From contig CAZKCV010000004.1 of assembly GCA_964551605.1 (NCBI GenBank), positions 7,331-71,330 on the forward strand: a stretch of DNA of 64,000 nucleotides, given 5' to 3'. This document shows, piece by piece, positions 5,806 to 61,199 of this stretch (position 1 is its first letter; every line of letters begins with the position of its first letter). The position numbers and the translations under genes are program-made. This DNA comes from an uncultured Gammaproteobacteria bacterium. GTDB taxonomy: Bacteria; Patescibacteriota; Microgenomatia; Daviesbacterales; UBA10151. Below the pieces are notes generated by a model, which did no database searches, was not told the origin of the DNA, and was given only the letters and a program-made list of their open reading frames with translations.

Positions 5806-6740
5806 GCAAAGTACAGCATCTTTTGTCCATTACTGATTTATCAGCCAAAGAAATTTGGTCAGTTTTTAAACTGGCCAAAAAGCTCAAACAGGAGCTTAAA
5901 AGCAAGGGTAGTAATAAGCCTTTTCTTAAAGGTAAATCCTTAGTGCTTATTTTTGAAAAGCAGTCGCTTCGCACCAGGATATCCTTTGAGATCGGCATGG
6001 CTCAGTTCGGCGGTCATACTCTTTATCTTGACCCGCGGGATACCGGGATTGGGGTCAGGGAGTCAGAAGCAGATATTGCCAGAGTACTTTCCGGCATGGC
6101 AGATATCATCGCAGCCAGGACTTACTCGCATCAGACAATCGTGGACATTGCCCAAAATGCCACGATTCCGGTAATTAACGCCTTGTCAGATATAGAACAC
6201 CCGTGTCAGGCATTAACAGACCTGTTTACTATTTGGGAAGTTAAAAATTATAAGAATTTATCCGGATTAACTGTTAGTTATGTGGGGGATGGAGATAATA
6301 ATGTGGCCCATTCTTTATGTCTGGGTACCGCAATGTTGGGGATGAATTTTAGGTGTGGATCACCAAAGGGTTATTCTTTGAATTCAGAAATAGTTAAAAG
6401 AGCCAGAAAATATCAGGCAAATATTTTGCAAACCGAAGATCCCAAAGAGGCAGTTTCAGGAGCCGATATAGTAGTGACTGATACTTGGATTAGTATGGGT
6501 GATACGGATAAAGAGGGTAGGATTAAAAAATTCAAAAAGTATCAGGTGACTCAGGCTTTAATGAGATATGCCAAGAAGGATGCCATTTTTATGCATTGTC
6601 TGCCAGCCTACAGGGGGAAGGAAGTGACTGCTGAAGTAATTGACGGTCCGCAGTCAGTGGTTTTCCAGGAAGCAGAAAATAGGCTTCATGTCCAGAAGGC
6701 TTTGATATTTTTCCTTTTAGGGAATAGAGCGAATCATTAA
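5802..6740 (+). CDS. argF: Ornithine carbamoyltransferase
   Basis: SLRTRISFE (STRTR-type carbamoyl-phosphate motif), DTWISMG and HCLPA, which distinguish OTC from ATCase. Confidence 0.85.
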   Translation: MSKVQHLLSITDLSAKEIWSVFKLAKKLKQELKSKGSNKPFLKGKSLVLIFEKQSLRTRISFEIGMAQFGGHTLYLDPRDTGIGVRESEADIARVLSGMADIIAARTYSHQTIVDIAQNATIPVINALSDIEHPCQALTDLFTIWEVKNYKNLSGLTVSYVGDGDNNVAHSLCLGTAMLGMNFRCGSPKGYSLNSEIVKRARKYQANILQTEDPKEAVSGADIVVTDTWISMGDTDKEGRIKKFKKYQVTQALMRYAKKDAIFMHCLPAYRGKEVTAEVIDGPQSVVFQEAENRLHVQKALIFFLLGNRANH

Positions 6741-6762: not shown

Positions 6763-7737
6763 TTATTTAACTAACTTATTACTAAAGACTTCAGCCAGCA
6801 TGCAACGGGCACTGCCGCCGCCGATTGTCTCTATGGTAGGAATGCTAACAGGGACAAGGTCACCATGATCTAGTAGTTGTTTTCTTTGATCTTTAGTAAA
6901 CGCATCATACGCCGTAACAGACATTATGATTTTATTCTTTCCTAAAATGGATCTTACCTGTAAGATGTTGCCGCAAAAAGAATGTAGTTGATCTAAGGTA
7001 ATCGGTATAGTTTCTAATCCCAATGTAGTCAGTTCCTTTTTAACAGTTTCGCGTTCTCTAACGTCTTTCATTGCCTCAAAACACACAGTAGAAAAATCTT
7101 CACCAATGGTCATTACTACATTCGTGTGATAAATTGGTTTTTTGTTTTTATCATATGCATGAAATTTGACTGGTCGGTAACCAGTTTTGTTGCAGAAATC
7201 ATCTAAAACTGAACAAGATGTTCTAGCAGATTCATGAGCAAAAGCTACTTTTCTTCTGCGATCAAGAATGAGGCTTCCGGTACCTTCAAGAAAAGACTCT
7301 GTTGCTTCATAATGAGTAAGATCCAAGATGGCTGAATGATCAATTTGAAGTCCCAGAGCCCGGCTGACATTGTCCAATTGTCTTTCAGCTCTCCTATTTG
7401 GAGCAAGCATAGGATACAGGATGATATTCGTGCTGCTTAATTCATTATGGAAGGAAATCCAGTTATTAGGAAAAACTGCATCAGGCGTGATTACATCTTC
7501 TCTGCTAGGACAGATTAAGACTCTGATATTATTCTTACGTAACGAAGCTACTGCGGCATTAAATTCTAACACAGCCTTATTACGGATTTCTTCGGAGTTA
7601 TGCGGTAAATTATTTTGGAAAGTATTAGTAGTGGCGGTTTGATTATTGAAACCAAATTGATCGGGGCTAATCATTAAGAGGGTATCTGTTAATTGGGCAG
7701 ACTTAGACGACAAGAGTGCTTCTGTTGTAGTAGTCAT
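6763..7737 (-). CDS. Amidinotransferase-superfamily hydrolase (CtlX/DDAH/arginine-deiminase-related), C-terminal catalytic Cys
   Basis: 324 aa; C-terminus GGGSARCMLAEVF is typical of the catalytic Cys of guanidino-group-modifying enzymes. Confidence 0.5.
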   Translation of the reverse strand: MTTTTEALLSSKSAQLTDTLLMISPDQFGFNNQTATTNTFQNNLPHNSEEIRNKAVLEFNAAVASLRKNNIRVLICPSREDVITPDAVFPNNWISFHNELSSTNIILYPMLAPNRRAERQLDNVSRALGLQIDHSAILDLTHYEATESFLEGTGSLILDRRRKVAFAHESARTSCSVLDDFCNKTGYRPVKFHAYDKNKKPIYHTNVVMTIGEDFSTVCFEAMKDVRERETVKKELTTLGLETIPITLDQLHSFCGNILQVRSILGKNKIIMSVTAYDAFTKDQRKQLLDHGDLVPVSIPTIETIGGGSARCMLAEVFSNKLVK

Positions 7738-8338: not shown

Positions 8339-10246
8339 CTACATTCTATTAGGTGCCTCAATACATAGTAGGTTTAGACCTTTTTTGATAACTTGAGCAG
8401 CAGCCCTGGTTAGTCGGAGGCGAGTATTTCTTATATTTAAATCCGGTTCATTGAATACGCTGACTTGTTTATAAAAATCGCTGAATAAACCAGCGGTATG
8501 GTAAATATGATCCGCGATCACCTCCGGACTGTTTTTTGCTCCGGCTAACGCAACTATTTCGGGAAACTTACTTATTTGTTTAATCAATAGAAATTCTGAT
8601 TGGTCAGTTGTTTTAACGGGTATATCTGGCGCTAGTTTTATTGCTTCTTCTTCAGCGCGTCTTAGTAGTGCTGCCATTCTGGCGTGGGCATATTGGATAT
8701 AAGGAGCACTGTATCCGGTAAAAGATAAAGCTTTATCCCAGTCAAAACTGATTGATCTCTCTCTGTTTTGTCCAAGATCAAAAAAAGCCACCGCCCCAAC
8801 TCCTACTTGTTTTGCTATGATTTCTTTTTCCTCGGGAGGGAGGTTTTTATTAATCTCATTGATTTTTTGTCTGGCCCTATCAATAGCTTCATTTAGTACA
8901 TCCTCCAAAAATATCACTCTGCCGGCCCTGGTGGACATTTTGCCTTCCGGCAGCTTAATCATCCCAAAATGAAGATGTTCAAGATGCGGTCTTTTGCCGT
9001 CGGTCATTTTATCGAAAGTGGCAAAAACTTGCTGAAAGTAATCTTGTTGATCTTCGCCAACTACATAAAGGATGCGGTCCGGTTGAAACCAGGCGCACCG
9101 GGCAACCAGTGTAGCTAAATCACGGGTAGAATAGAGGCTTGTTCCGTCAGCCTTTTGAATGACTAAATTCTTAAGGTTCCTTTCCGATAAATCGACTATG
9201 GCAGCTCCTGTTTCATCGATAGTAGCAATACCCCGGTCTTTCGTATATTGCAAGACAGGAGGCAACATGCTGAAATAAAATGATTCGCCCAGCATGTATT
9301 CATACTTCGTTCCGAGCAAATCATAAACTTTCTGGAATTCGGTTAAACTTTGTTCAGTAGCCCACTTTAGTAGTTTTAATGCCTCTGTGTCACCTGCTTC
9401 TAGTCTTTGGAACCATTTTCTTCCTTCTCTCTCCAGAGGGGTTTCTACCTCGGCGTTAGGATCGCGCAATCTTGCTCTTTCTGCCGCTCTCTCTTTTTCA
9501 ACCTCATCATGTATACGGACGTACAGTTTGTATAAGCCTCTTACAGGGTCGGTATTATCGCGCAGTTCTTCGTAATCCTGACTCCAGAGTTCGTAAGCCC
9601 TTGTCAGCATGCCGAATTGGGTACCCCAATCTCCCAAGTGGTTATCACGGATAACGGTATAACCATTAGCACGATGTATCCGCGCAAGCGATTCCCCAAT
9701 GATAGTTGATCTGAGATGGCCAACACTCATATATTTGGCTACATTTGGAGAAGAGCAGTCAATAATAATTGTTTTACCGCCACCTGTTTTTTGCTCTCCA
9801 TACCGATCTTGATAGGTTTCAATTTCCGTAAGGACTTGGGAAGTAAACACCCCTGGATCAAGTTGAAAATTAAGGTATCCGCCTTCAGCATTGGCTTGTT
9901 TGATTGCTTGAGGGTGGGGTTCTTGATTAAAACCTGTAGCCAACTCTTGAGCAATTTGTGCTGGACTTTTTCTTAGAGTTTTTGCCATTCCGTGACAGAC
10001 TATAGTCAAGTCAGCTTGGATCCTGGAAGGTGGTTCGATTACTTGTATGCTTGTTTCTGTTAAAGCATGATTAAGACCTGTTAAATGAGTTTCTAATTCT
10101 TTCTGTAATTTTGCCCAGACATATTCGTTGTTTTCAGGTATTGTTGTCAGATTTGGTTCGACAACAGGAATCATGCTTTTTGGAAGGGGGGGGACAGGAA
10201 TTCCCAGATAGTGTAAATCAGATTCAGGATTTCCCTGTGTTTTCAT
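8339..10246 (-). CDS. argS: Arginine--tRNA ligase
   Basis: Class I HIGH-like SPNVAKYMSVGHLRS, a DALR anticodon-binding C-terminus and an Arg_tRNA_synt N-domain. The ORF track extends to 10279; the internal ATG at 10246-10244 gives a 4-nt overlap with the upstream gene, so the exact start is uncertain. Confidence 0.85.
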   Translation of the reverse strand: MKTQGNPESDLHYLGIPVPPLPKSMIPVVEPNLTTIPENNEYVWAKLQKELETHLTGLNHALTETSIQVIEPPSRIQADLTIVCHGMAKTLRKSPAQIAQELATGFNQEPHPQAIKQANAEGGYLNFQLDPGVFTSQVLTEIETYQDRYGEQKTGGGKTIIIDCSSPNVAKYMSVGHLRSTIIGESLARIHRANGYTVIRDNHLGDWGTQFGMLTRAYELWSQDYEELRDNTDPVRGLYKLYVRIHDEVEKERAAERARLRDPNAEVETPLEREGRKWFQRLEAGDTEALKLLKWATEQSLTEFQKVYDLLGTKYEYMLGESFYFSMLPPVLQYTKDRGIATIDETGAAIVDLSERNLKNLVIQKADGTSLYSTRDLATLVARCAWFQPDRILYVVGEDQQDYFQQVFATFDKMTDGKRPHLEHLHFGMIKLPEGKMSTRAGRVIFLEDVLNEAIDRARQKINEINKNLPPEEKEIIAKQVGVGAVAFFDLGQNRERSISFDWDKALSFTGYSAPYIQYAHARMAALLRRAEEEAIKLAPDIPVKTTDQSEFLLIKQISKFPEIVALAGAKNSPEVIADHIYHTAGLFSDFYKQVSVFNEPDLNIRNTRLRLTRAAAQVIKKGLNLLCIEAPNRM

Positions 10247-49493: not shown

Positions 49494-50294
49494 TTACTGA
49501 ACCTCTGACCAACGTTGAAGGGTATCGGCAAATAAATCCCTTAAAATCACCACATATTTCGGCTGGTGGACTATCTTTTCCGCAGCCACTGTATTATCAG
49601 TCAGGCTGCGGCAGAAAACTATTTTACCCGGGCTTAGACTGATTAAACTGCCATAAATAGTTAAAGTGTTGGCTACAGTGGAATTAGTAGTACAAGGATA
49701 ACCGGCAGTATAAATTTTATCTGAAGAAATGATCACCGAATATATTTGAGTCACAGTTTGAGTGATACTAACGTAGCCCTTAACGACAAAGACTATGCCG
49801 GAGCTTGCGTCTCCGAAATTACTGTTAAAGGTTAAATCTCCGTCTACAAAGATAACAGCAGCGGTTTTGGAGGGCCCACCTAGAGGGGAATTAATATCTA
49901 CATTTCCATTAACTAATACAATGTCATAACTGTTTAATAGGGACCTTAAAGTGCCTTGGTTGGCGGTGGCAGTTGATGTTTTAGCGGCTTTAGATTGGGT
50001 GTAATAGAGTGATTTTAGATCTTCATAAGTAGGGATTTTATAGGAGACAAAAGCAGCTTTTAAGTCAATCACGCAATTACCGGTGGTATTGCTGAATTTA
50101 GTAGAAACTGTCGGAGCACTAATTAAGCCGCCGGCCCGGGGATTGGTGGATTGGGTTGGGCAGGCATTTTGGGCATAAACGGTTGGTAGTATAAATAAAG
50201 CTACGACAATCAAATAAGCTGCCAAAATAACTGTACCCTGTAACCTAAGACCTTTAGGTCGCAAGCTTCGCTTATACCCTGTACCCTTTATCAT
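49494..50294 (-). CDS. Secreted/membrane-anchored hypothetical protein
   Basis: N-terminal hydrophobic segment after the family-B-encoded KRSLRPKGLRL; Thr/Ser/Asn-rich body. Confidence 0.4.
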   Translation of the reverse strand: MIKGTGYKRSLRPKGLRLQGTVILAAYLIVVALFILPTVYAQNACPTQSTNPRAGGLISAPTVSTKFSNTTGNCVIDLKAAFVSYKIPTYEDLKSLYYTQSKAAKTSTATANQGTLRSLLNSYDIVLVNGNVDINSPLGGPSKTAAVIFVDGDLTFNSNFGDASSGIVFVVKGYVSITQTVTQIYSVIISSDKIYTAGYPCTTNSTVANTLTIYGSLISLSPGKIVFCRSLTDNTVAAEKIVHQPKYVVILRDLFADTLQRWSEVQ

Positions 50295-51898
50295 TATGGT
50301 CCTCCCGGAGCCTGGATAGCTTTATTGGAGTGGACATCACCGCCCTCTGTTTGTACCCAAGGGGTGATGCAGGCCCTGAGGTTACAAGTTTGGGTTTCTC
50401 TCAAACCCCTGGTGCCGTCTGCTTTCAGGCACTGCAGCCCGCCGTAGGCCGGAACCGGACTAATGCAATTTCTGGTTTTGAAGCCAGGCCCGCAGGTTTC
50501 AGTACACATAGAATTCCAAACCGGCCCGTCCGGAAAGTCCCAGCCGCCATCAACAGGGCAACGCGGAATGTTACAAGTCACAGTCTGGGAAGAAGGGCCG
50601 GAACAGGGGGCGCCGTTGTTTGAAGGCGGAGTGCAGGTTCTGGTCCTGGTGGTTGTATCGGAACCGTCCCCGCAGGCCGGACAGGCACTCCAGGGGCTCC
50701 AGGCAGACCAGACACCATCCGTAGGACACAGCGGGAGTTTGATAATAGATACTGCGCTATGCCAGCCAAAATTGCCGTTAAACCAGTATGTGCTCCAGTT
50801 GGAGGAAGCATCATAGCCGAATAAACGGACGTAATAAGTATGGTCGGGTTGAATAGTCAGGGGGCCGGAAACTCCTGAGGCGCCATTAAAGCCGATAGGG
50901 GCATCCGTGTAAGTAGCGCCCGCAGGAACTCCTTTATTATAAAAAGTGGCAAAGTTAGGGTCTTCGCTGATATCCACCCAGTTGATTTGGCGTGCCGGAT
51001 TGGAGGTGGGGAAATAGATCCTGGCCAGGACAGAATTAGTGGCATTTGAAGTTAAGCAGGTGCCATAGTTAGTCAGAGTGTAATCATACTGGATATTCGG
51101 CGCCGGCATTTGGTATCTAAACCCGGAGGCGCAGGTATTGGCAAGCTCTGTTTCTACACTTTGGTTGTTCCAGTTAGTAGTCCTTTGTATAAGGCTATAT
51201 TTAGTGCCAATGGTATAGTAAGGGTTATTAAAGGCAATACTTTGGCTTGAGTATCCAGTTGACCAATTCCGGGTACATAATCCTGAGGATCCCCATCGGG
51301 TATCACAGACTGTCCAGTCCCAGTTGTTCCAGTTATCATGAGCCTTGACATAGAAGTTAGTTACTGTCCAGGGATAAACCCAATCATAAAGATTGATTGT
51401 GCAACGGTTATCCCACCAGTTCATCCAGCAGTACCCGCTGCTGGACCAGATATAGGCTTTATTCCAAGTGTAAGCGCCGCATTGGGGAGGGGCCGGAGGA
51501 GGCTGCGGAGGGTTATTCAGGGTAATATTAATGGAGGAACAACTACCGGTGTTGCCGGCGGCATTAGGCGAGACAATAGTGGCGGTTATATGATGAGGAG
51601 GAGTACCGGTAGATTGTCCGGTTGTATTCCAAGTTACACTGGGCTTGATAGCAGGTACAGTGTCCCCCGGGGCGGGCCAAATCCTGGTATTATCAACTAA
51701 AATAGCGGTTACTCCTTGAGTATTAGTGGTATCCACCGTAATAATAATTGATTCACCGATAGTGGCACTTGTTTTGGCAGTGATATTACAGGTGGGGGTA
51801 CTAAAGTCAGTATTCCAGTCAGCCAGGGCCGGGGAGATAAAGTATAGAGTATAAAGTATAAAGTATAGTGGGAAATAAAGCAGCAGGCGGCAGGGCAT
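50294..51898 (-). CDS. Secreted Trp/Cys-rich protein with two thrombospondin type-1-like repeats
   Basis: Signal-peptide-like N-terminus; WSAWSPWSACPACGDGSDTTTRTRTC and a second CxxTCGPG..R.C repeat; GC-rich relative to its surroundings. Confidence 0.5.
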   Translation of the reverse strand: MPCRLLLYFPLYFILYTLYFISPALADWNTDFSTPTCNITAKTSATIGESIIITVDTTNTQGVTAILVDNTRIWPAPGDTVPAIKPSVTWNTTGQSTGTPPHHITATIVSPNAAGNTGSCSSINITLNNPPQPPPAPPQCGAYTWNKAYIWSSSGYCWMNWWDNRCTINLYDWVYPWTVTNFYVKAHDNWNNWDWTVCDTRWGSSGLCTRNWSTGYSSQSIAFNNPYYTIGTKYSLIQRTTNWNNQSVETELANTCASGFRYQMPAPNIQYDYTLTNYGTCLTSNATNSVLARIYFPTSNPARQINWVDISEDPNFATFYNKGVPAGATYTDAPIGFNGASGVSGPLTIQPDHTYYVRLFGYDASSNWSTYWFNGNFGWHSAVSIIKLPLCPTDGVWSAWSPWSACPACGDGSDTTTRTRTCTPPSNNGAPCSGPSSQTVTCNIPRCPVDGGWDFPDGPVWNSMCTETCGPGFKTRNCISPVPAYGGLQCLKADGTRGLRETQTCNLRACITPWVQTEGGDVHSNKAIQAPGGP

Positions 51899-51958
51899 GA
51901 CTTATTATTGGCATATTAGAAAATGTTTTGCAAGGCGACAAGGTGGTATAATAAATTT

Positions 51959-52255
51959 ATGACACAATCACAAAAACGTCTGGAAAAAATCAAAACCAAA
52001 ATCCTTCCCATACTCAAACAGGCAGGAGTTAAAAGAAGCAGCCTGTTTGGTTCTTATGTCAGGGGAGAGGAAACAAAAGATAGTGATATTGATATTTTAG
52101 TAGAACTTCCTAAAGGAAAAAGTCTGTTTGATTTTGTAGACTTACAATTAAAATTAGAGGAAATGTTAAACAGGAAGGTTGATTTGGTGGAATACTCCAC
52201 AATTAAACCCCGCCTCAAACCTTATATTTTGGATAACCAGCTGCAGATCCTATGA
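51959..52255 (+). CDS. Nucleotidyltransferase antitoxin (MNT family)
   Basis: GSYVRGEETKDSDIDILV minimal nucleotidyltransferase motif. Confidence 0.65.
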   Translation: MTQSQKRLEKIKTKILPILKQAGVKRSSLFGSYVRGEETKDSDIDILVELPKGKSLFDFVDLQLKLEEMLNRKVDLVEYSTIKPRLKPYILDNQLQIL

Positions 52256-52608
52256 AAAAGCGGGATATTGGTGTTTTTCTTGAGGATATTTTAGAGAGCA
52301 TTGACAGGATAGAAGAATACACCAAAGATATCCCGGAAGAAGGATTTTACAGTACAGTTTCACTCCAAGATGCAGTCATCAGACGCTTTGAGATTATCGG
52401 AGAGGCAGTTAAACATATTCCCCAGAAAGTGAAGGACAAATACTCAGAGGTTCCATGGAAAGAAATCTCAGGCACCAGAGATATATTAATTCATGAATAT
52501 TTTGGAGTAAATTTAGAAAGAATCTGGAAAACCATCCAAAAAGATGTCCTGCCCTTTAAAAAGCAACTTCAACAGATGCTCCGCGATATTGATGAACAGG
52601 CTTCGTAA
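52252..52608 (+). CDS. HepT-like (DUF86) toxin
   Basis: R-x4-HxY-like RDILIHEYF motif; overlaps the MNT gene by 4 nt. Confidence 0.65.
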   Translation: MKKRDIGVFLEDILESIDRIEEYTKDIPEEGFYSTVSLQDAVIRRFEIIGEAVKHIPQKVKDKYSEVPWKEISGTRDILIHEYFGVNLERIWKTIQKDVLPFKKQLQQMLRDIDEQAS

Positions 52609-52777
52609 TTAATCTGTTAAGCTACATTTTGATCTATATTATATTTGGATCTATTTTCAGGATGGCAGATGCGATAGTGGGGAAGTGGTATAATTAGATT
52701 TGATTGACAAAGTTGCTTTTTCATGCATATAGTGGTACTATAGGATCATAAACTTTAGCTTTGAGCAGAGGCTAACT

Positions 52778-54370
52778 ATGAATACCATTGAAATGGATGG
52801 GGTAAAGGTTGAGAATCCATCAAGCTTAAATCCGTCCGACGGGCAACCGCCTGATTCCTCCGTGGTGTCACAACATCATCGACGGTCTCACCCTTGGGCT
52901 AAGAGACTGATACGGTGGGGTTTAGGGCTACTGACAGTGGCAGCCCCGGCAGCAGATACCGGTGTCAATATCTCTAAAACTGCAGCACAAGAATTTTCCC
53001 AGCCGCAGCCAGCCCCAACCCTGGAACTAAAGGCCTCCCCTCACGGCTCTATTGCTGAAGACATAGAAGCTGTTAAATCCCTGCAATATTCCAAGCCAGC
53101 CGAGCCTGCTTCTCAGGTTAAGATAGAAGCTTCAGGCTCCTTGACTGATACATTGAAAGCGCCATTGGTAGTGAGCAGGGAGTGGGTAGAAAGGAACCCC
53201 CAAAATATAGTGGCAGAAGTAGATGTAACGGATAATAACGGCGATTTAACTAAGCAGTTTACAGTGCTTGGTAGTAGTGTTCCCTATGAAACACATTTAG
53301 ACGGAAATGTTTTTACTGAGCGCAGAGCCCTGACTAAAATCCCCATGGGAAATGTTCAATCGCTTGGTGTGACTACAGACGGACAGACTTTAATAGCAGG
53401 CGGGACAGTAGCAAGAGACAATAATGCTGCTGGGATGGTTTTCCTGTCTTCTGACCAGGGGCAAACTTGGGTAGACAAGTCTTCAAAGTTCAATAATCTG
53501 GAAGGATTTACCAATCAGGTAAGGACTGCCGGGAATACTTTTATGGCAAATAATGCTAGATTTGAAGCTGGTTCTAATCAATTCCTTTATGACGTGGTAA
53601 ACGGGGATATAGTGAATGTGCGGGATATTACCTATCAAGACCAAAATGGTAACCCTGTGGCAGTAGGTTATGCAGGGGCTATGGGTAAGATGTCAGTGGA
53701 TAATGGTATTGCCACCATAGTTACGAATGGCTCTAATTTACTGGAGGATGGCTTGCTGGTATTAAGAGTAGATACTAATGCCGGATCTGGTACTGTACAA
53801 CACATCACACAAGTGAGGGTTGGTAATACATTGACTAACTTGGGCTACCTTTACGGTAAAGCTTTTTATACGGATCCAGCTGGTGACCCTCATGTTAAGG
53901 CTTTTAATTTTACGAGAAGGATAGTTTTTGATATAAATCTGAGAACGCTGAACGCTACAGAAACCAATGTGGCGGGCGTATTAAATGGTAAAGGTATCAA
54001 AGACTACCAGCTCAATACCTTTTATGCAAATGATCTCCGCGTTGATATAGATGCCCAACGTAATATTAGAACTCGTGTTGCAGGGGCTTACAGTACTACC
54101 AATGGTGACGCGCGGGCAGCCGTGGTAACTTTGGAAACAGGAGATGGGTTTAGCGATTTATTCCCAGCAACAAGATCTATTATAGGTGAAGGTGGCATGC
54201 AATTAAAACGGATCAATGGTCAACTGGTGGAGGACTTTACAATTATAGGAAGAGGTAAGGCTATCCTGCTTCCGGACGGGCAACTATTATTTACAGATGG
54301 CGGTTTTCCGGGCCAAATTACGGCCAGAGCTTATTTACCTCTAGTCACTAAATCTTCCTCGGGTTGGTAG
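52778..54370 (+). CDS. Secreted hypothetical protein (Thr/Gly/Asn-rich)
   Basis: N-terminal TM/signal segment LGLLTVAAPAA; 530 aa. Confidence 0.4.
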   Translation: MNTIEMDGVKVENPSSLNPSDGQPPDSSVVSQHHRRSHPWAKRLIRWGLGLLTVAAPAADTGVNISKTAAQEFSQPQPAPTLELKASPHGSIAEDIEAVKSLQYSKPAEPASQVKIEASGSLTDTLKAPLVVSREWVERNPQNIVAEVDVTDNNGDLTKQFTVLGSSVPYETHLDGNVFTERRALTKIPMGNVQSLGVTTDGQTLIAGGTVARDNNAAGMVFLSSDQGQTWVDKSSKFNNLEGFTNQVRTAGNTFMANNARFEAGSNQFLYDVVNGDIVNVRDITYQDQNGNPVAVGYAGAMGKMSVDNGIATIVTNGSNLLEDGLLVLRVDTNAGSGTVQHITQVRVGNTLTNLGYLYGKAFYTDPAGDPHVKAFNFTRRIVFDINLRTLNATETNVAGVLNGKGIKDYQLNTFYANDLRVDIDAQRNIRTRVAGAYSTTNGDARAAVVTLETGDGFSDLFPATRSIIGEGGMQLKRINGQLVEDFTIIGRGKAILLPDGQLLFTDGGFPGQITARAYLPLVTKSSSGW

Positions 54371-56470
54371 TTATTTAACTGGTTCTCTTGGGATGCTCCG
54401 TTCGCCGCCGGTCCAATTGATATAGCTGTAAGTTCCCCACCTACGATTACCTAAGGCATTGTAAAGCGTTACGGAAAATTGAGGAGGCGTAGATGGTAAA
54501 CTGACCCCCCTGTCTCGCGCAAGTGCCGTTATACCAATGGATTGATTCTCATGAGCTATTGTCCTGGTAAAATTATGCCAACCATCCTTTAAATAGATGT
54601 AGTACGTGTCAAAGCAGAAATTATAACCATTGCAGCCTGACTGGTTAGAACCAGTTCCTGGTGTCGGTCCTCCGGCATAAGAAGTATTTTTGTTGGCATA
54701 GATAAGTACAAACCCATTTGTATTGTTATTGTAGTTTGAACTTCGCATTAGCTCTGAGAGGGTATTGTTATTAGGGGCGGGGGGTGAAACCTGGCTGGTA
54801 AAGGCGGCTCCGACTAGTTTTATATCGCTGCCATTTGTATTATCTACATTGGGGATGATGGTAATAGCATTATAGTAATTACTACCTCCTTGATTTGAGT
54901 CGGACCTTAAACCGCTAATAGTATAAGTCCCTGCTTCTTGTGAGCCGGTGGCCGAGTCAGGTTTGATTTGTAGGGTTCCTGGAGTTGGAGCGGTACAGGT
55001 AACGGATTTGGGAGAACCGGGGAGAAGAGTATGGGTGCCGGAACCAATGTTAATGCCATAGGCATAGATATTATGGGATCTGCCGTCCCTGAGGGAGTTG
55101 GCAGGAATAGTAAAGGAAAAGCCATGATTGGGGTTGCCGCCGCACTGGTTAGCTACTGCTGTTTCCCTGGGCAGATTGGCAGTGGCAGAGCCTAAGCCTG
55201 TGCCAGTGCCGGCCGGGCCATCCGCATAGAAATCTACCCTTAGGGAAGCATTGTAATTATCCCCGTCACAGGTCCAGCCGGTGATGGCCGCGCAAGTCCC
55301 GCCTTCCAGATTCCCCACCGGATTATAGGTGGCTTCCCCGTAAATCTGCAGGTTGGCCATATCTCCGGTTGCTGCATTGTAGCCGGAGGTGGGAGGATAA
55401 CCCGGGGGAGAATAATAAAAAGTATTAAAGTAGGCCCGGCCAGAAGTATAGGCATTCCGGGTATTGATGCCGTTGATAAAGACATTGCCCTTGCCGCAGA
55501 AAGGATTATCCAGCCTGACCTGGGAGCCGGAGGTATTAGTGCCATACAGGTCAATCTGGCGGGGTTCATTGGGCCGGTCGCAGTTATATCTGCCTTGTTC
55601 CCAGTAACCGCCTTCTTCAGAGCCTCTGTTTTGATCCAGATGGGATTGTTGGATGGAGAGGAAATGTTGCCCGGGTTGCAATTGATGATTGGGGATTGTG
55701 ACGGTTAAGTTGCCTCCGTCAAAAGTCCAATTGGGTCCGGTGTATTTTGAGGGCACGTCACCTTTGTAGTATTGGTCGGCTTGCACTGTATTATAGGAGG
55801 CGGGAGCAGGGGTCCAGTCAAAGGTAGACTCGCCAAAGATCACACCGCTGCCATATGGCACGCCCCACTGTGACCATTCATCCCGGAGACCCTGTTGATT
55901 ATCGGATAACATCTGATATGCCCTGGTCCATTCGGAGGCCCGGGGGCAGGGCCGCTGGGGATCATTAATGATCATTCTTCTTAAGAATAAAGCTTCAATG
56001 GAGTTCTGGTCCACTCCGCAAAGGCTGGCCAAATCATTGGCTAACTCACCACCGATAAAAATCCGTTCCTCCCTGGCTAACATCGGCCCGGTAGGAGAAA
56101 TAACCGTGGTCCGGCCTTCATAGCCAAACGGGCTGGATTGTCCTTCGGGAGAAGTAGCCACTTGAGTAGAAGCAGTTGGTTCTCCGGCAAATACAGCCAC
56201 AGAAACTATCCCACCGGTGTTGCCTCCGGCATGGCCCAGTTTAAAGTCGGTTAACCTGATCCGGTTGACTTTGACCACTCCCGAAGGGGCGGCAAAGCTT
56301 TGGCCGGCCAGGTGGTTATCGGTCCAGCCTGCCTCAGTAGTATTGCTGCCGGCCGGACCATTGCCCGGGAAAATTTCAATTTCAGCGGCTGAGGCCGGGG
56401 AGGGAAGAATAAGTAATATAAGTAATAAGAATAAACATGTAATGCTGAATAAAGCTTTAAGTTTGCTCAT
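54371..56470 (-). CDS. Large secreted hypothetical protein (Gly/Asn/Thr/Pro-rich)
   Basis: Signal peptide MSKLKALFSITCLFLLLILLILPSPASA; 699 aa. Confidence 0.4.
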   Translation of the reverse strand: MSKLKALFSITCLFLLLILLILPSPASAAEIEIFPGNGPAGSNTTEAGWTDNHLAGQSFAAPSGVVKVNRIRLTDFKLGHAGGNTGGIVSVAVFAGEPTASTQVATSPEGQSSPFGYEGRTTVISPTGPMLAREERIFIGGELANDLASLCGVDQNSIEALFLRRMIINDPQRPCPRASEWTRAYQMLSDNQQGLRDEWSQWGVPYGSGVIFGESTFDWTPAPASYNTVQADQYYKGDVPSKYTGPNWTFDGGNLTVTIPNHQLQPGQHFLSIQQSHLDQNRGSEEGGYWEQGRYNCDRPNEPRQIDLYGTNTSGSQVRLDNPFCGKGNVFINGINTRNAYTSGRAYFNTFYYSPPGYPPTSGYNAATGDMANLQIYGEATYNPVGNLEGGTCAAITGWTCDGDNYNASLRVDFYADGPAGTGTGLGSATANLPRETAVANQCGGNPNHGFSFTIPANSLRDGRSHNIYAYGINIGSGTHTLLPGSPKSVTCTAPTPGTLQIKPDSATGSQEAGTYTISGLRSDSNQGGSNYYNAITIIPNVDNTNGSDIKLVGAAFTSQVSPPAPNNNTLSELMRSSNYNNNTNGFVLIYANKNTSYAGGPTPGTGSNQSGCNGYNFCFDTYYIYLKDGWHNFTRTIAHENQSIGITALARDRGVSLPSTPPQFSVTLYNALGNRRWGTYSYINWTGGERSIPREPVK

Positions 56471-56473
56471 AGT

Positions 56474-56911
56474 TTATTTAATCTCCGGATCCAGAATCAC
56501 TATCAGGTTTGTTTCCAGAAGGCCTTCTGTATTTGCGGCAGCAGAAATTGATACAGAACTGCCTATTTGGGCAGAAGAGGAAGCCGGTACTGTGCCAATG
56601 GAATTGGGGCCGAAACGCTGCTGTTTTAAGATAGCGGCGCCGGTAGCAATCCGGATGTCTATTTCCTGGTCATCACTTACTTTTACGGTTAATACATTGT
56701 CTTCAATCCGGCTGATTTCACCTTCCACCAGTTCAGAGGTGGGTAGCTCTGTATCTTCCGGTGCAGCAGTTTCTTCAGTAATGTTACTTTTCTGTTGGGT
56801 TAAAAAGTAAGTAGCAGCCAAACCCAGACCTGAAAGCAGGATGGCAGTAATAATAATTAAGCTGATCCGGTTTAAGAAGATATTTTTTAATAGATTAAGT
56901 TTAGAATCCAT
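56474..56911 (-). CDS. Membrane-anchored hypothetical protein
   Basis: Start placed at the internal Met MDSKLN..; one TM helix. The track's TTG start at 57001 was rejected. Confidence 0.35.
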   Translation of the reverse strand: MDSKLNLLKNIFLNRISLIIITAILLSGLGLAATYFLTQQKSNITEETAAPEDTELPTSELVEGEISRIEDNVLTVKVSDDQEIDIRIATGAAILKQQRFGPNSIGTVPASSSAQIGSSVSISAAANTEGLLETNLIVILDPEIK

Positions 56912-57000: not shown

Positions 57001-57165
57001 ATGGTCAAGTTGAATGCAAAGCAATTAAGGAAGGGTAAAGGGGAAAGCGTAAAGGGTGAAGTAAGAAAGAACAACATCTATATTATCCTGGATAATGTTT
57101 TAGATACCTATAATATTGGTTCTATCTTCAGGCTGGCAGATGCAACTTTGAAGATTTTACATTGA
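57001..57165 (+). pseudogene. Duplicated 5' fragment of the TrmH-family methyltransferase gene (48 codons + 6 novel codons)
   Basis: 57001-57143 matches 59764-59906. A 53-bp core is identical; a 42-nt G-rich heptad block differs. Confidence 0.5.
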
Positions 57166-57219
57166 CATATTGGTTAAGAATGAGGTATCTTGCAAATATT
57201 CCTGCCTGATAGAGGTTGA

Positions 57220-58551
57220 ATGACAAAACAAGAGATTTCTATTTCGGATCATCAAGAGCCTAATTTATTGAGATTACGCGGTGGAGTTTTTCTTGTTGAA
57301 GGATCTAAACGGGCAGCTCTATATGATACAAACAGCGGTAATGTCTATTCGCTTAACCAAGAAGCAACTCAAACAGTAAAAGGAGAAGCTAATTATCCCG
57401 AATTTTGGTCAAAACTTGCTTCTATGCAACTGGTTGTTGCCAGACAAGATTCCGCAACTGAGTTGATCATTTCAGAAGTTGAAATTCCGAAACCAACCTT
57501 GCAATTTGCATGGTTAGAACTTACTGAATTGTGTAATGAACGTTGTCTTCACTGCTATGGCAGTTTTTCTCCAGATAAGCAAGATAAAATTGCTAGATCT
57601 CTTGATCATACAGAATGGAAAGATACTATACAATCGTTGGCAGAAAATGGCTGTAAACAAATTCAATTTATCGGCGGAGAACCTTTTAGGTACCGCGGTG
57701 AGACAAAAACACAAACTGTTTTAGATTTGGCTGACTTTGCTAAAGAGCAGGATTTTAGTTTAGTTGAGATATTTACTAATGGAACGTTGATCTCGGCAGA
57801 AATTGTTAAAAGAATAAAAGATCTTGAAGTTTCAGTTGCTCTTTCGCTCTATTCATCAAACGCTGCGATTCATGACAATATAACACAAACCCCTGGAAGT
57901 TACAGAAAAACTCTTAGGGCAATTAATATGTTGAGAGAAGCAGATGTTTCGCTGAGAGCAGCTATTATTGTAATGAAACAAAATGAAGATACTATTGAAC
58001 AAACATTAGAGATGGCTCAAAATTTAGGCTTGAACGTTAGAGTCCCTGATGCAGTGCGCCCCAGTGGGAGGGCACAAGAAACAGATATAATTCCAAGTGT
58101 CGAAATGCTCATAAAATATGGGCTTATCACAAAACCGAATTTCTCAACCGATCCAGTTAGCTTTCAGCGAAACCACCTGTATCACAGTTGTTTAGCCGGT
58201 AAGGTTGCAATTACTAGGGATAGACAAGTCATCCCTTGTATTTTCTCAAGAGATAACACATTAGGTAATCTTAGAGATCAAAAATTGGCAGATGTACTTG
58301 AGTCTCCAGTTCTAAAAGAAACTTGGGAATTAACCAAAGATAAAGTTTTGGTTTGTAGAGACTGCGAATACCGTTACGCTTGTTCTGACTGCCGTCCGCT
58401 TGCTGAAGGTTCAAATTGCGGAAAAGGCTATTCAAGCGCTCCCTTTCCAAGATGTACCTATAATCCGTATACTGGTGAATGGGGATCCGGTGTGTGGAGG
58501 ATGAACAGTCAGGGAGAAATTGTTTATGAAGAATTGCCAATACAAAAGTAA
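57220..58551 (+). CDS. Radical SAM / SPASM-domain peptide-modifying enzyme with an N-terminal RRE-like extension
   Basis: ELCNERCLHCYG CX3CX2C motif; a C-terminal Cys-rich twitch/SPASM-like region (C..CRDCEYRYACSDCRP..CGKG..CTY); ~90 aa precede the rSAM core. Confidence 0.8.
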   Translation: MTKQEISISDHQEPNLLRLRGGVFLVEGSKRAALYDTNSGNVYSLNQEATQTVKGEANYPEFWSKLASMQLVVARQDSATELIISEVEIPKPTLQFAWLELTELCNERCLHCYGSFSPDKQDKIARSLDHTEWKDTIQSLAENGCKQIQFIGGEPFRYRGETKTQTVLDLADFAKEQDFSLVEIFTNGTLISAEIVKRIKDLEVSVALSLYSSNAAIHDNITQTPGSYRKTLRAINMLREADVSLRAAIIVMKQNEDTIEQTLEMAQNLGLNVRVPDAVRPSGRAQETDIIPSVEMLIKYGLITKPNFSTDPVSFQRNHLYHSCLAGKVAITRDRQVIPCIFSRDNTLGNLRDQKLADVLESPVLKETWELTKDKVLVCRDCEYRYACSDCRPLAEGSNCGKGYSSAPFPRCTYNPYTGEWGSGVWRMNSQGEIVYEELPIQK

Positions 58552-58572
58552 AAAGAAGGGAGGTGAAGAAAT

Positions 58573-58782
58573 ATAAAAGAAAATACCGAAATTTTAGCTC
58601 AACAAGCGGCTAGTAGGCAGGTTGGTTCTGGACCCACAATTGAATTGGTAACACCTAAAGCTGGAATGGGCATGGAACCAAGTGGAGTTTGTCCTCCAGA
58701 TTGTGCTCCAGGTGCAATTTGTCCTCCAAATTGCTTACCGAATTGTCAGCCGTCGTGTCCGCCGACAATATTTCCAAGATAG
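58573..58782 (+). CDS. Cys-rich candidate RiPP precursor peptide (core ..VCPPDCAPGAICPPNCLPNCQPSCPPTIFPR)
   Basis: Frame open from 58567 to TAG 58780-58782. A strong SD GGGAGGTGA lies directly after the rSAM stop. The codon at the canonical start position is ATA (58573); alternative starts are TTG 58645 and ATG 58666. Confidence 0.4.
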   Translation: MKENTEILAQQAASRQVGSGPTIELVTPKAGMGMEPSGVCPPDCAPGAICPPNCLPNCQPSCPPTIFPR

Positions 58783-58817
58783 CCTGAATCTTCCAAGCAG
58801 CCTAAACTACCGCCGAA

Positions 58818-59729
58818 CTAAGGCGGAATATGTAGCGTATTGGGGGTGGGGGCAATCAGGAATTGTGGCCAGGTTTTAGGGTATAGAGTCATGATAATTT
58901 TGCCGAAAACAAAGGCGAAATCGTGAGGGTATTTGCGTGGTTCTAATACAGAATCTACTTGGTCGAGATTATTTTCTTTTTCGACCTTTAGTAGGTATCC
59001 CATTGTATTGGCAGCAAAGATATCAAAGTTTCGTTTATGAGTCGGCCAAAAAATCATACTTGCCTGATATTCACAACAGAAAGCAAAGAGCTCGGTTATT
59101 CCTTCAACGGCGGGAAACCGAATTGGCAATTTTGCAAATTTTTCGCTCTTGGAGTGAGATGAATTTTTTACTTCGGAGTAGAGCTGTTTAACGGTTTTCA
59201 ACAGCAGGAGATTTTCCTTCTTATTTGAGTAATACCAAAGTTTGTGTTGGTGCCAGTAAGCGTGTCCGAATTCGTGGACAATAGTAGCCATGTAACTCTC
59301 GCGGGTGGTATAGGGGTTGTTTTTACGTCTTTTCATTTTCTTTTGGAGTTCAGTAAAAGGTATTAATAATCCTCCGGAGATAAAAGAAGTTATCAACTCA
59401 TTAGTTTTTAGTTTTGAGAGAAGTAACCGAGTTAGTTTCGGTAGTTTTAGACCTGCTCTCCACCAGTATTGATAATCATCGGAGATTTTAAGTTTATGGA
59501 GAATTTTGTAGGCAAAATATTGTTTCAGGCTGCATTTAATAGAGGTAAGCTTGGGAAATTTTGCCTGTGACCAAAGATAAATATTTTCGCAGTCATAACT
59601 GACAACAATTACCTTTTCAATTAACTTTTTGTTCTTAAACACAAAATTTAGTTTGGGATGCCAAACTGAATTTATTCCTTCTTCAATTGCCTCGAAGTCT
59701 TCTTTTACCGCTTTGTAGTTTTCAAACAT
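58818..59729 (-). CDS. Putative zinc metallopeptidase (HExxH)
   Basis: ATIVHEFGHAYWHQH motif; 303 aa; convergent with the precursor ORF. Confidence 0.5.
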   Translation of the reverse strand: MFENYKAVKEDFEAIEEGINSVWHPKLNFVFKNKKLIEKVIVVSYDCENIYLWSQAKFPKLTSIKCSLKQYFAYKILHKLKISDDYQYWWRAGLKLPKLTRLLLSKLKTNELITSFISGGLLIPFTELQKKMKRRKNNPYTTRESYMATIVHEFGHAYWHQHKLWYYSNKKENLLLLKTVKQLYSEVKNSSHSKSEKFAKLPIRFPAVEGITELFAFCCEYQASMIFWPTHKRNFDIFAANTMGYLLKVEKENNLDQVDSVLEPRKYPHDFAFVFGKIIMTLYPKTWPQFLIAPTPNTLHIPP

Positions 59730-59763
59730 AACGCAATTTTACCATTAATGATAAAATCATGGC

Positions 59764-60297
59764 ATGGTAAAACTTAATGCAAAGCAATTGAGAAAGGGTA
59801 CAGGGTACAGGGTACAGGGTACAGTTAAGCGCAATGAGATCTATATTGTTTTGGATAATGTTTTAGATACCTATAATATTGGTTCTATCTTCAGGCTGGC
59901 AGATGCGGTGGCAGCCAAAAAGATTTACCTTTGCGGGGGAACAGAGACTCCGCCCAATCACCGGATTAAGAAAGCTTCCATTAATACCACCGAAGTAGTG
60001 GAGTGGGAGTACTTCGAAACAGCCCTGGAAGCAGTTTCAAGGGTAAAGCGTGAAGCGAAAAGGGTAAAGATAATAGCGATAGAACAGAGCCCTAAATCAA
60101 TCCAATATAATACTTTTGAGTATAAATTGCCCATATGTTTGGTGGTAGGGCATGAAAGTAACGGGGTAAGCAGGGAAGTTTTGGAAATTTCTGATGCCAT
60201 TGTTGAAATTCCCATGTTCGGGGTTAATATTTCTTTAAATGTTGTGGTTTCTTTAGGGATAGTATTGTATGAAGTTATTAAGAAGAGTGATAATTAA
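59764..60297 (+). CDS. TrmH/SpoU-family RNA 2'-O-methyltransferase
   Basis: SpoU motifs NIGSIFR...GTE and a C-terminal LNV..S; contains the (GGGTACA)x4 in-frame repeat. Confidence 0.7.
   Translation: MVKLNAKQLRKGTGYRVQGTVKRNEIYIVLDNVLDTYNIGSIFRLADAVAAKKIYLCGGTETPPNHRIKKASINTTEVVEWEYFETALEAVSRVKREAKRVKIIAIEQSPKSIQYNTFEYKLPICLVVGHESNGVSREVLEISDAIVEIPMFGVNISLNVVVSLGIVLYEVIKKSDN
59796..59824. repeat. (GGGTACA)x4 heptamer tandem repeat (family A variant; G4 motif) in frame in the trmH-like CDS
   Basis: Perfect 7-nt repeats. The duplicated fragment at 57033-57061 carries GGGTAAAGGGGAAAGCGTAAAGGGTGAAG at the same place. Confidence 0.6.
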
Positions 60298-60301
60298 AAT
60301 T

Positions 60302-60955
60302 ATGTCGGGAGATTCTAGGATAAGTATTATGCAAGCTTCAGGTAGACTAGGGCCATACTTAAGCAGTATCCGCAAGAGTGCGCAAGAGGCGGTTTCCAAG
60401 ATTGAAGCAAAGATCCCCTTAACTGGTGTTGATGTTGTTATCTGTGATAATCCTAGAGCTACAATTCCACATTTGGGTATCGGTGGTCAAACTGTGACAT
60501 CTAATCTGGTGATAGTATCGCTAAACCCAAGCTCTAAATTCTTAATAAACAAAATTGAAGAGGCGATACTGAGAACCTTGGCCCACGAGCTAAACCATTG
60601 CGCAAGATGGGAATGCGTAGGATACGGAAAGACTCTCCTGGAGGCGATGATTTCAGAAGGATTAGCAGATCATTTTGATGAAGAGATTTCAAAGGGAGAA
60701 CCGCAATCCTGGAGTAAATCTCTAAGTCTCAGGCAGATAGAACGATTTTTAGGGCTGGCTAAGGAAGATTTACATAACAAGAACTATAATCATACGGATT
60801 GGTTTTTTGGGTCAAAAACCAAAAAAATCCCAAAATGGACAGGTTACAGCCTGGGATATTATCTGGTAGAGGAGTATCTGAAGAGGAATTCCGGTAAGCA
60901 GCCGTCCGACATTTACAATTTAACTGCATTACAGTTTATTAAATCAGATGATTGA
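60302..60955 (+). CDS. Putative Zn-dependent protease (DUF2268-like, HExxH)
   Basis: LAHELNHCARW motif; start placed at the internal Met after the trmH stop. Confidence 0.45.
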   Translation: MSGDSRISIMQASGRLGPYLSSIRKSAQEAVSKIEAKIPLTGVDVVICDNPRATIPHLGIGGQTVTSNLVIVSLNPSSKFLINKIEEAILRTLAHELNHCARWECVGYGKTLLEAMISEGLADHFDEEISKGEPQSWSKSLSLRQIERFLGLAKEDLHNKNYNHTDWFFGSKTKKIPKWTGYSLGYYLVEEYLKRNSGKQPSDIYNLTALQFIKSDD

Positions 60956-61199
60956 GATAGTTTTTGAATCACATTCAACAAGCATGGATAATGAGAATCA
61001 TCTTTCATCAGGATGGAATGATGTTGAACTCTCGCCATTAGGAATACAACAAGCAAAGGATTTAGGAAAACGAAGAAAAGATGAAAAATTTGATGCAATT
61101 TTTTGTTCAGATCTTCAAAGATCTTATAAAACAGCTGAGATTGCTTTTGGCAATAAATTTCCAATAATTCGTGATGAAAGATTAAGGGACTGCAGTTAG
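60948..61199 (+). CDS. Histidine-phosphatase (PGAM-like) family fragment, probably truncated
   Basis: Only 83 aa; N-terminal IVFESHSTS..GW.D..LS..G..QA..LG resembles the RHG region, but the motif is degenerate and the C-terminal half is absent. Confidence 0.3.
   Translation: MIEIVFESHSTSMDNENHLSSGWNDVELSPLGIQQAKDLGKRRKDEKFDAIFCSDLQRSYKTAEIAFGNKFPIIRDERLRDCS

Follow-up and report, generated by a model that had tools for sequence, protein, structure and literature searches.

A three-gene unit set between direct repeats at the 5' end of a trmH gene, on contig CAZKCV010000004.1 of the Patescibacteriota assembly GCA_964551605.1, is probably a self-contained cassette for a peptide made on ribosomes and modified after translation (RiPP), inserted at trmH, in which a radical S-adenosylmethionine (rSAM) enzyme would modify C-x-P units of a precursor under the guidance of its leader. 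The unit occupies approximately positions 57193–59729 of the 64,000-nt stretch analyzed here (the window), and only three open reading frames (ORFs) lie between the repeats: an rSAM enzyme with a SPASM domain, a small Cys- and Pro-rich peptide, and a convergent HExxH protein. We refer to the family in this report as the C-x-P repeat peptides, and it appears to be uncharacterized. An earlier reading made from the sequence alone had described the rSAM gene, the peptide frame behind a strong Shine-Dalgarno sequence and the convergent 303-aa HEFGH ORF, all of which are present where it placed them, and its proposal of a candidate undescribed rSAM/SPASM RiPP locus is supported by the conservation of the peptide and the recurrence of the trio described below. 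Sequence identical to the window is found in one 73.9-kb NCBI contig and in two Logan contigs from other sequencing runs. The features of the cassette are as follows.

57220–58551, plus strand: gene for the rSAM/SPASM protein, 443 aa, a putative peptide maturase (Pfam, alignment and AlphaFold 2 model)
57532–57555, plus strand: CX3CX2C motif, residues 105–112 of the rSAM protein, within ELCNERCLHCYG
58189–58455, plus strand: seven-Cys SPASM motif (C324, C340, C379, C382, C388, C391, C412)
58558–58566, plus strand: GGGAGGTGA, the precursor's Shine-Dalgarno sequence, conserved among relatives
58573–58782, plus strand: precursor peptide frame, 69 codons plus TAG (58780–58782), unannotated, first codon ATA
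58630–58656, plus strand: leader motif GPTIELVTP, conserved
58690–58779, plus strand: precursor core CPPDCAPGAICPPNCLPNCQPSCPPTIFPR, six C-x-P units
58818–59729, minus strand: convergent gene for the 303-aa HExxH protein, HEFGH at residues 152–156
59262–59276, minus strand: invariant H152, E153 and H156 of the HExxH protein, with E213 at 59091–59093

Read from the Shine-Dalgarno sequence to the TAG, the precursor frame ends in EPSGVCPPDCAPGAICPPNCLPNCQPSCPPTIFPR, with GMGMEPSGVCPPDCAPGAICPPNCLPNCQPSCPPTIFPR directly before the stop and 6 Cys in its last 30 residues. We compared it with loci fetched from genomes and metagenomes, labelled L001 and so on. Patescibacteria precursors share the leader MKE..E.LAQQ...(E/Q)P(T/E)I(E/I/V)LVTP, followed by a variable linker and a hypervariable core, and across 33 non-identical peptides 223 of the 235 core Cys are followed by x-Pro. 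The 33 peptides were chosen for having at least three C-x-P units, and the resulting percentage is thus somewhat inflated, but the choice of peptides cannot account for the near-100% rule within each core. In composition-preserving shuffles, the 6 of 6 in the window core was never reached in 2000 trials, and the counts observed across the family were almost never reached. Pro occupies position +2 in 95% of units family-wide, there is no constraint at position +1 (Gly 13%, Asn 11%, Pro 11%, Arg 10%, others), position +3 is mixed (D 14%, N 13%, C 15%, S 9%, T 9%), and Arg is not enriched at +4, where it falls outside the eight commonest residues. Precursors hold from 4 to more than 20 units, which may be contiguous (CxPCxP), as in CSPCNPDSHCTPCSP of L013. 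Because units can be contiguous and +1 is unconstrained, the modification must work within one tripeptide or on Cys alone, regardless of the side chain at +1. The sequence-only reading had taken Asp or Asn beside Cys as a ranthipeptide hallmark, an argument that loses its support because these residues are not conserved there: Asp or Asn stands at +3 in only about 27% of units, and what is conserved instead is C-x-P.

For the core, comparing the window with L083 gives pN = 0.058 and pS = 0.236 (small numbers), which is consistent with purifying selection on the encoded sequence. Neither the window precursor nor six related precursors matched any NCBIfam model at E <= 10, and a Pfam search likewise returned nothing. 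As a separate observation, the precursors of L080 (7325–7552), L176 (3954–4166), L178 (5874–6155), L001, L084 and L002 carry Pro/Arg/Lys-rich tails, such as …LPRPPKPPPPH, …RPPPPPRPRPN and …KPPPKPPGPH, that recall proline-rich antimicrobial peptides. In the window and in L083 the peptide is shorter at its end (…TIFPR and …TIFPK, respectively) than in L080, L176 and L178, and the downstream DNA that would encode a tail is degenerate.

The rSAM gene, peptide ORF and HExxH gene occur together at no fewer than 12 Patescibacteria loci in unrelated genomic contexts, and the trio behaves as a unit, since its neighbors are different each time. More widely, over 25 loci have a peptide ORF immediately adjacent to an rSAM homologue, and a conserved leader joined to hypervariable cores presents the general hallmarks of a RiPP locus; this Cys/Pro-rich ORF lies directly downstream of the rSAM gene, or upstream of it in a few distant lineages. 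It is present in Patescibacteria (L080, L083, L084, L176, L178, L001–L004, L006–L009, L017, L020, L024, L086), in Bacillota (L013), in Latescibacterota and relatives (L014, L090, L091), in Krumholzibacteriota (L010), and beside rSAMs of 28–32% identity on myxobacterial and proteobacterial contigs (L030, L036, L104, L105, L108, L122). The sequence-only reading had staked its proposal on a Cys-rich ORF being conserved beside rSAM homologues and on the enzyme's kinship with RiPP maturases; the ORF is conserved there, and the closest enzyme of solved structure, SkfB, is a RiPP thioether maturase. A convergent HExxH gene of the 303-aa type is the third gene in L080, L083, L084, L176, L177/L178, L001–L004, L007, L020 and L024, and L008 carries it in the same orientation as the rSAM gene. 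For TrmH and for each of the three cassette proteins, the nearest homologues are in assemblies of Candidatus Daviesbacteria, Roizmanbacteria and other Microgenomates/Patescibacteria. Public gene calls mostly leave the gap between the rSAM and HExxH genes empty (e.g., in L080, L083 and L084), and two assemblies call the peptide (L176, L178); with its precursor so seldom called, the C-x-P family is largely invisible to annotation-based mining.

Other genes at the relatives' loci fit a modified, exported peptide. L090 (1290–3648) encodes a free-standing PqqD protein, an rSAM-SPASM fusion with a C-terminal PqqD domain and an NTP_transf_5 protein, and one of its precursors holds 21 C-x-P units; L013 (6611–9105) encodes a GNAT protein and an ABC-2 exporter pair. 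The precursors of L030, L036, L104, L105, L108 and L122 bear, instead of the Patescibacteria leader, a twin-arginine-like signal (RRRLL…hydrophobic…AQA), which implies that the product is modified in the cytoplasm and then exported. Cassette modules also reshuffle: in L176 (3046–5633) the peptide core and peptidase are 78% identical to the window at the DNA level, but the rSAM, of 483 aa, is only 42% identical, and the breakpoint lies inside the peptide gene. L174 (1178–3993) is a decayed cassette: the peptidase gene and the peptide gene's 3' half (…NQICSPNCIPNCRPSCLPNIL…) are still there, but the leader and the rSAM gene have been lost. Beside this remnant lie a gene for an MvdD-like ATP-grasp protein and what may be a precursor of 85 aa.

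The 443-aa enzyme belongs to the radical SAM superfamily (Pfam PF04055, 74.5 bits against a cutoff of 29.5) and carries a SPASM domain (PF13186, 28.4 bits against 21.5). Its CX3CX2C motif (C105, C109, C112) is in place, preceded by about 100 aa upstream of the core, and it has hundreds of full-length relatives. C-terminal Cys stand at residues 324, 340, 379, 382, 388, 391, 400 and 412; in an alignment of 25 homologues all of these except C400 are invariant or nearly so, as is G335, and together they form the canonical SPASM pattern (tested as CX9-15GX4C...CX2CX5CX2-3C...C). In a search of the PDB, the family profile matches SkfB best by far (E = 3e-19), followed by TigE in second place and by MoaA, BlsE, viperins, BtrN, CteB and SuiB. 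Against NCBIfam, the rSAM core scores 50–105 bits with AhbD, NirJ, StsB, ScmE/F, AlbA, MftC and other models, far from the cutoffs of the sactipeptide maturase models (StsB, 88 bits against 625; AlbA, 69 against 850; SkfB, 55 against 300). It likewise reaches 97.4 bits of the 175 required for grasp-with-spasm (TIGR04193), over residues 292–423 only, and 56 bits of the 400 required by the rSAM_ACGX model. Because the defining models tested are not reached, the locus stands outside the curated sactipeptide, ranthipeptide, grasp-with-spasm, CXXX and ACGX families, although it would nevertheless work like an rSAM/SPASM RiPP system. In the AlphaFold 2 model, residues 17–80 form a beta-beta-beta-beta-alpha-alpha-alpha arrangement (predicted local distance difference test score, pLDDT, 84–90), a predicted topology like that of PqqD-type recognition elements; in our own reading, YSLNQEATQTVKG within it is similar to the PqqD signature '..LN..A..I...G'.

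The convergent HEFGH protein, suggested by the sequence-only reading as a member of the locus, proves to be a conserved cassette partner with a gluzincin-like fold. Residues H152, E153, H156 and E213 are invariant in 32 sequences and constitute the HExxH plus downstream Glu, the latter serving as third zinc ligand, that characterize gluzincins (clan MA(E)). The AlphaFold 2 model (pLDDT 86) includes a unique N-terminal beta domain, and the protein has no signal peptide. It matches no Pfam or NCBIfam model, a Foldseek search of the model against the PDB returned nothing significant, the gluzincin similarity being remote, and an exhaustive profile search of 1.84 billion proteins found only 132 representative clusters of the family. 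The protein is most plausibly a divergent cytoplasmic gluzincin and is predicted to be the leader peptidase. A second HExxH protease 3' of trmH, also raised as relevant by the sequence-only reading, can be set aside: this DUF2268 protein (60269–60955; Pfam), whose gene overlaps the 3' end of trmH by 29 nt, lies outside the repeats and is absent from the other cassette loci, with which trmH and an upstream 175-aa protein do not co-occur either, and it is not homologous to the 303-aa protein (hhalign probability 2%, with only the HExxH turn aligning).

The acquisition of the cassette can be read from its junctions, which comprise the following features.

57001–57143, plus strand: left direct repeat, a relic copy of trmH codons 1–48
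57001–57165, plus strand: relic ORF of 54 aa ending in RLADATLKILH, with a weak SpoU_methylase match
57144–57219, plus strand: segment joining the left repeat to the rSAM gene
57162–57191, plus strand: sigma-70-like site, TTGACA-18 nt-TATCTT, consensus match only
59764–59906, plus strand: right direct repeat, the 5' end of the intact trmH (59764–60297)
59797–59824, plus strand: (GGGTACA)x4 tract in the right repeat, trmH codons 12–21

The 143-nt bracketing repeats of the trmH 5' end reported by the sequence-only reading are real, 83% identical, sharp-edged and mosaic: the first ~85 nt are ~70% identical, and the last ~54 nt, which encode the highly conserved LDNVLDTYNIGSIFRLADA, are 100% identical. 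The relic encodes GKGESVKGEV where the intact copy encodes GTGYRVQGTV, and both are natural trmH alleles, the N-terminal segment of TrmH being hypervariable among homologues (GKG..VKG versus GTGYR.QG types). Such mosaic identity is not expected from the uniform decay of a duplicate and points to recombination of two trmH alleles in the conserved block. In the relatives L166 and L167, a divergent gene of 167–177 aa is followed ~40 nt later by an intact, cassette-free trmH (82–83% protein identity), and the HAD and Trans_reg_C genes downstream in L167 have their counterparts in the window. Since relatives have the same neighbors with an uninterrupted trmH, the cassette is an insertion, and the comparison of synteny with relatives lacking the insert, which the sequence-only reading had called for, bears out its view of an acquisition at the trmH 5' end. 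Nucleotide homology covers 57193–59729 against L083 and 57271–59730 against L080; it extends from the ribosome-binding region of the rSAM gene to the start codon of the peptidase and does not continue past the ends of the genes. The (GGGTACA)x4 tract is the exact point at which two short-read contigs break.

We infer that DNA bearing the cassette together with a 5' segment of trmH came in and was integrated through one crossover or through homology-facilitated illegitimate recombination. With no recombinase gene of its own, the unit does not qualify as an integrase-borne element or transposon, and neither a tRNA nor an Rfam element lies at the junctions. A comparable arrangement is found in a Roizmanbacteria cassette (L084), where a 116-nt direct repeat (5815–5930 and 8569–8684, 91% identical) duplicates the 3' end of an alpha/beta-hydrolase gene with the geometry seen in the window: the relic adjoins the rSAM gene, the intact gene adjoins the peptidase, and the stretch of perfect identity occupies the same end. 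In L024 the repeat is weak (32–47 nt; 4822–4868 and 7534–7580), and six other cassettes have none; long flanking duplications thus recur without a recombinase in the unit. Carriage by a phage or plasmid found no backing, as viral contigs gave only relatives of 24–28% identity and plasmids gave no match, and the Logan contig L081, considered as an excised circle, is a linear assembly fragment ending inside the repeats.

Around the cassette, GC content is 45–52% at 50000–56500 versus 36–43% in the cassette and trmH flank; the sequence surrounding the 50000–56500 region has 36–40%. This upstream region, outside the repeats, contains ORFs for a 530-aa protein (52778–54370, plus strand) and a 699-aa protein (54371–56470, minus strand), neither with a Pfam match, the latter with an N-terminal signal-like segment. 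Downstream, an ORF at 60948–61199 aligns with His_Phos_1 over the first 80 positions only, out of 194, and is probably a truncated gene, and the position held by DUF2268 in the window is taken in relatives by toxin-antitoxin modules (AbiE in L166, BrnT/BrnA in L167).

We propose that the precursor leader would dock as a beta-strand on the maturase, whose rSAM site would generate 5'-deoxyadenosyl radicals and modify the C-x-P units one by one. The likeliest product would be a thioether, of sactionine or ranthionine type, confined to the tripeptide, with the Cys sulfur bonded either to the Pro ring or to the alpha-carbon of residue +1. By analogy, our best guess is a thioether that stays within each C-x-P unit: the closest characterized relatives form Cys thioethers, the SPASM motif has seven Cys only, Pro is the sole conserved partner, and repeated three-residue motifs have precedents. 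In thioether synthases such as CteB, a seven-Cys SPASM leaves a site on auxiliary cluster I for a substrate Cys. Confinement to the unit is suggested because units are contiguous, +1 may be Gly and no other acceptor is conserved. The cytoplasmic gluzincin would then cut off the leader to yield a compact, Pro-rich, multiply cross-linked peptide of ~30 residues, for which a role in antagonism or host interaction is plausible. The cassette itself would owe its entry to recombination at trmH's conserved 5' block, leaving the relic by the rSAM gene and the intact gene by the peptidase.

Several observations weigh against this interpretation. The rSAM falls under the curated cutoff of every NCBIfam model, those of sactipeptide and ranthipeptide maturases included, and the thioether proposal is drawn from analogy and motif logic. 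Residues 1–95 gave no match to PqqD or another RiPP recognition element (RRE) in searches with the PF05402 hidden Markov model (HMM) or against PDB sequences (E <= 5–10), whether the 95 residues were used singly, as an 18-sequence set or as a profile against the PDB; the RRE-like N-terminus of the sequence-only reading thus fits the predicted topology but receives no HMM support. Docking of the leader on the rSAM N-terminus is accordingly uncertain, some relatives having separate PqqD domains; L090 carries genuine ones besides its N-terminal extension. The window unit contains neither an exporter nor an immunity gene, and in all three independent assemblies the precursor is without a canonical start that would include the leader.

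The chemistry could instead be that of the anaerobic sulfatase-maturating enzymes (anSMEs), SPASM enzymes with the recognition motif (C/S)-x-(P/A)-x-R, in which case each C-x-P Cys would be oxidized to C-alpha-formylglycine and the same cassette would yield a poly-aldehyde peptide. C-x-P corresponds to the first three positions of that motif, Pro at +2 is conserved to the degree described above, and a modification of Cys alone would suit contiguous CxPCxP units. We nonetheless judge this unlikely, since the Arg expected at +4 is not enriched, PDB profile matches at E <= 1e-3 include SkfB, TigE, CteB and SuiB and no anSME, the top NCBIfam matches include no anSME model, the family has no counterpart of the additional upstream Cys with which anSMEs complete their auxiliary cluster I, and anSMEs act on folded, leaderless sulfatases. 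Less probable still is that the 303-aa protein is a tailoring enzyme dependent on alpha-ketoglutarate (alpha-KG) and Fe(II), catalyzing hydroxylation or oxidative cleavage, and not a protease. HExxH proteins in RiPP clusters, some of them fused to rSAM domains, are known to act as alpha-KG-dependent hydroxylases and oxidative backbone cleavers and not as hydrolases (PMC12636437), but the 303-aa protein matches neither that family (IPR026337 type) nor any other in NCBIfam or Pfam. Finally, the small ORF could be fortuitous and the rSAM substrate a non-peptide or a protein cofactor, so that the locus would not encode a RiPP at all. The heme and d1-heme enzymes AhbD and NirJ are among the top NCBIfam scores of the rSAM core, and the peptide is uncalled in most public records; against these points stand the conservation of the peptide ORF, Shine-Dalgarno sequence, leader motif and C-x-P core beside the rSAM across phyla, the signature of purifying selection in the core, and the PqqD domains and ABC exporters of relatives' loci, which together make this account very hard to credit.

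A further alternative concerns the window copy and is compatible with the RiPP cassette as the best explanation of the family. In seven relatives the codon that lines up with the ATA at 58573 is ATG, the start of their precursor, 5–9 nt past GGAGGTGA. The presence of ATA in three independent assemblies shows it to be a real allele. Because ATA replaces the precursor ATG, peptide production in the window strain is probably weak or abolished, and either low-efficiency initiation at ATA is tolerated or the copy has recently been silenced. That the window holds a recently silenced, decaying copy from which no peptide is made is a serious possibility, if not the one we favor. In addition to ATA standing behind the same Shine-Dalgarno sequence that precedes ATG in the seven relatives, in sequence identical in two further independent assemblies, only two codons (AGA and AAT) separate it from the upstream in-frame TGA, the next canonical starts (TTG at 58645, ATG at 58666 and ATG at 58672) would remove the conserved leader, and the loss of the rSAM gene in L174, with the peptidase and half of the peptide gene remaining, provides a precedent for cassette decay. 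However, neither the rSAM (443 aa) nor the peptidase (303 aa) is truncated and each keeps every invariant residue, the peptide frame is free of stops and frameshifts, the sequence and spacing of the Shine-Dalgarno element are intact, and ATA can initiate translation at low efficiency in bacteria.

The window thus appears to hold a member of a genuine and apparently undescribed rSAM-RiPP cassette family, caught as a recent insertion in trmH. We found no NCBIfam or Pfam model covering the peptide, the rSAM clade or the peptidase, and no description of the cassette family in the openly accessible literature that our search covered. The genomes of Patescibacteria (the candidate phyla radiation, CPR) are tiny and are considered poor in natural-product pathways, and recurrence of the cassette across Microgenomates, WWE3 and Dojkabacteria at unrelated loci points to a selected ecological role, which could be competition or interaction with host cells. 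The near-absolute C-x-P rule provides a crisp, testable substrate motif for a SPASM clade that has no curated model, its enzymes could reveal new radical chemistry on Cys or Pro, and the partner HExxH protein defines a small uncharacterized peptidase family. A bolder hypothesis, which we offer tentatively and think doubtful as a whole, is that these loci form a new RiPP class extending from Patescibacteria to Myxococcota, Bacillota and Latescibacterota, with an undescribed modification of C-x-P (a three-residue Cys-to-Pro or Cys-to-C-alpha(+1) thioether ring in each unit, or multiple formylglycines), a new, dedicated gluzincin family acting as leader peptidase in the Patescibacteria branch, and recombinase-free spread by insertion-duplication at conserved gene ends.

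The sactipeptide maturases SkfB, AlbA, StsB and the CteB type are among the closest known systems, but the window rSAM is far below the SkfB, AlbA and StsB model cutoffs, and precursors of the window family have neither conserved distant acceptors nor a hairpin-type arrangement of Cys and acceptors. anSMEs have eight ligating Cys against seven in the C-x-P family, whose similarity to them is weaker than to RiPP maturases and whose substrate bears a leader and has no Arg at +4. Compared with gluzincin leader peptidases of the M1/thermolysin type, of which AplP of class III lanthipeptides is an example, the partner protein is only 303 aa long, has its unique N-terminal beta domain, lacks Pfam, NCBIfam or significant Foldseek matches, and belongs to a family of ~130 clusters. 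Grasp-with-spasm maturases (TIGR04193) share the C-terminal 130 residues, including the post-SPASM tail 'AP.PRCTYNPY.GEWG', but the match is limited to the C-terminus and the window cassette has no ATP-grasp gene, the sole one seen, in L174, adjoining a decayed cassette. Ranthipeptides, exemplified by the CX3D repeats of freyrasin/PapB, by SCIFF/Tte1186 and by thermocellin/CteB, resemble the family in that one SPASM enzyme works iteratively on short repeated Cys motifs, and Asp or Asn often follows the motif in the window peptide (CPPD, CPPN, CLPN); they differ in that +3 Asp/Asn is a minority feature of the C-x-P family beside its +2 Pro, and neither maturase nor precursor models give an above-cutoff match here. 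In the triceptides, which contain three-residue cyclophanes, and in the TvgB/TigE system (TigE, PDB 8vpo), which produces poly-cyclopropylglycine peptides, a short motif of three to six residues is likewise repeated and processed iteratively by one rSAM/SPASM enzyme, with an aromatic or aliphatic residue at the first motif position where the C-x-P repeat peptides have Cys.

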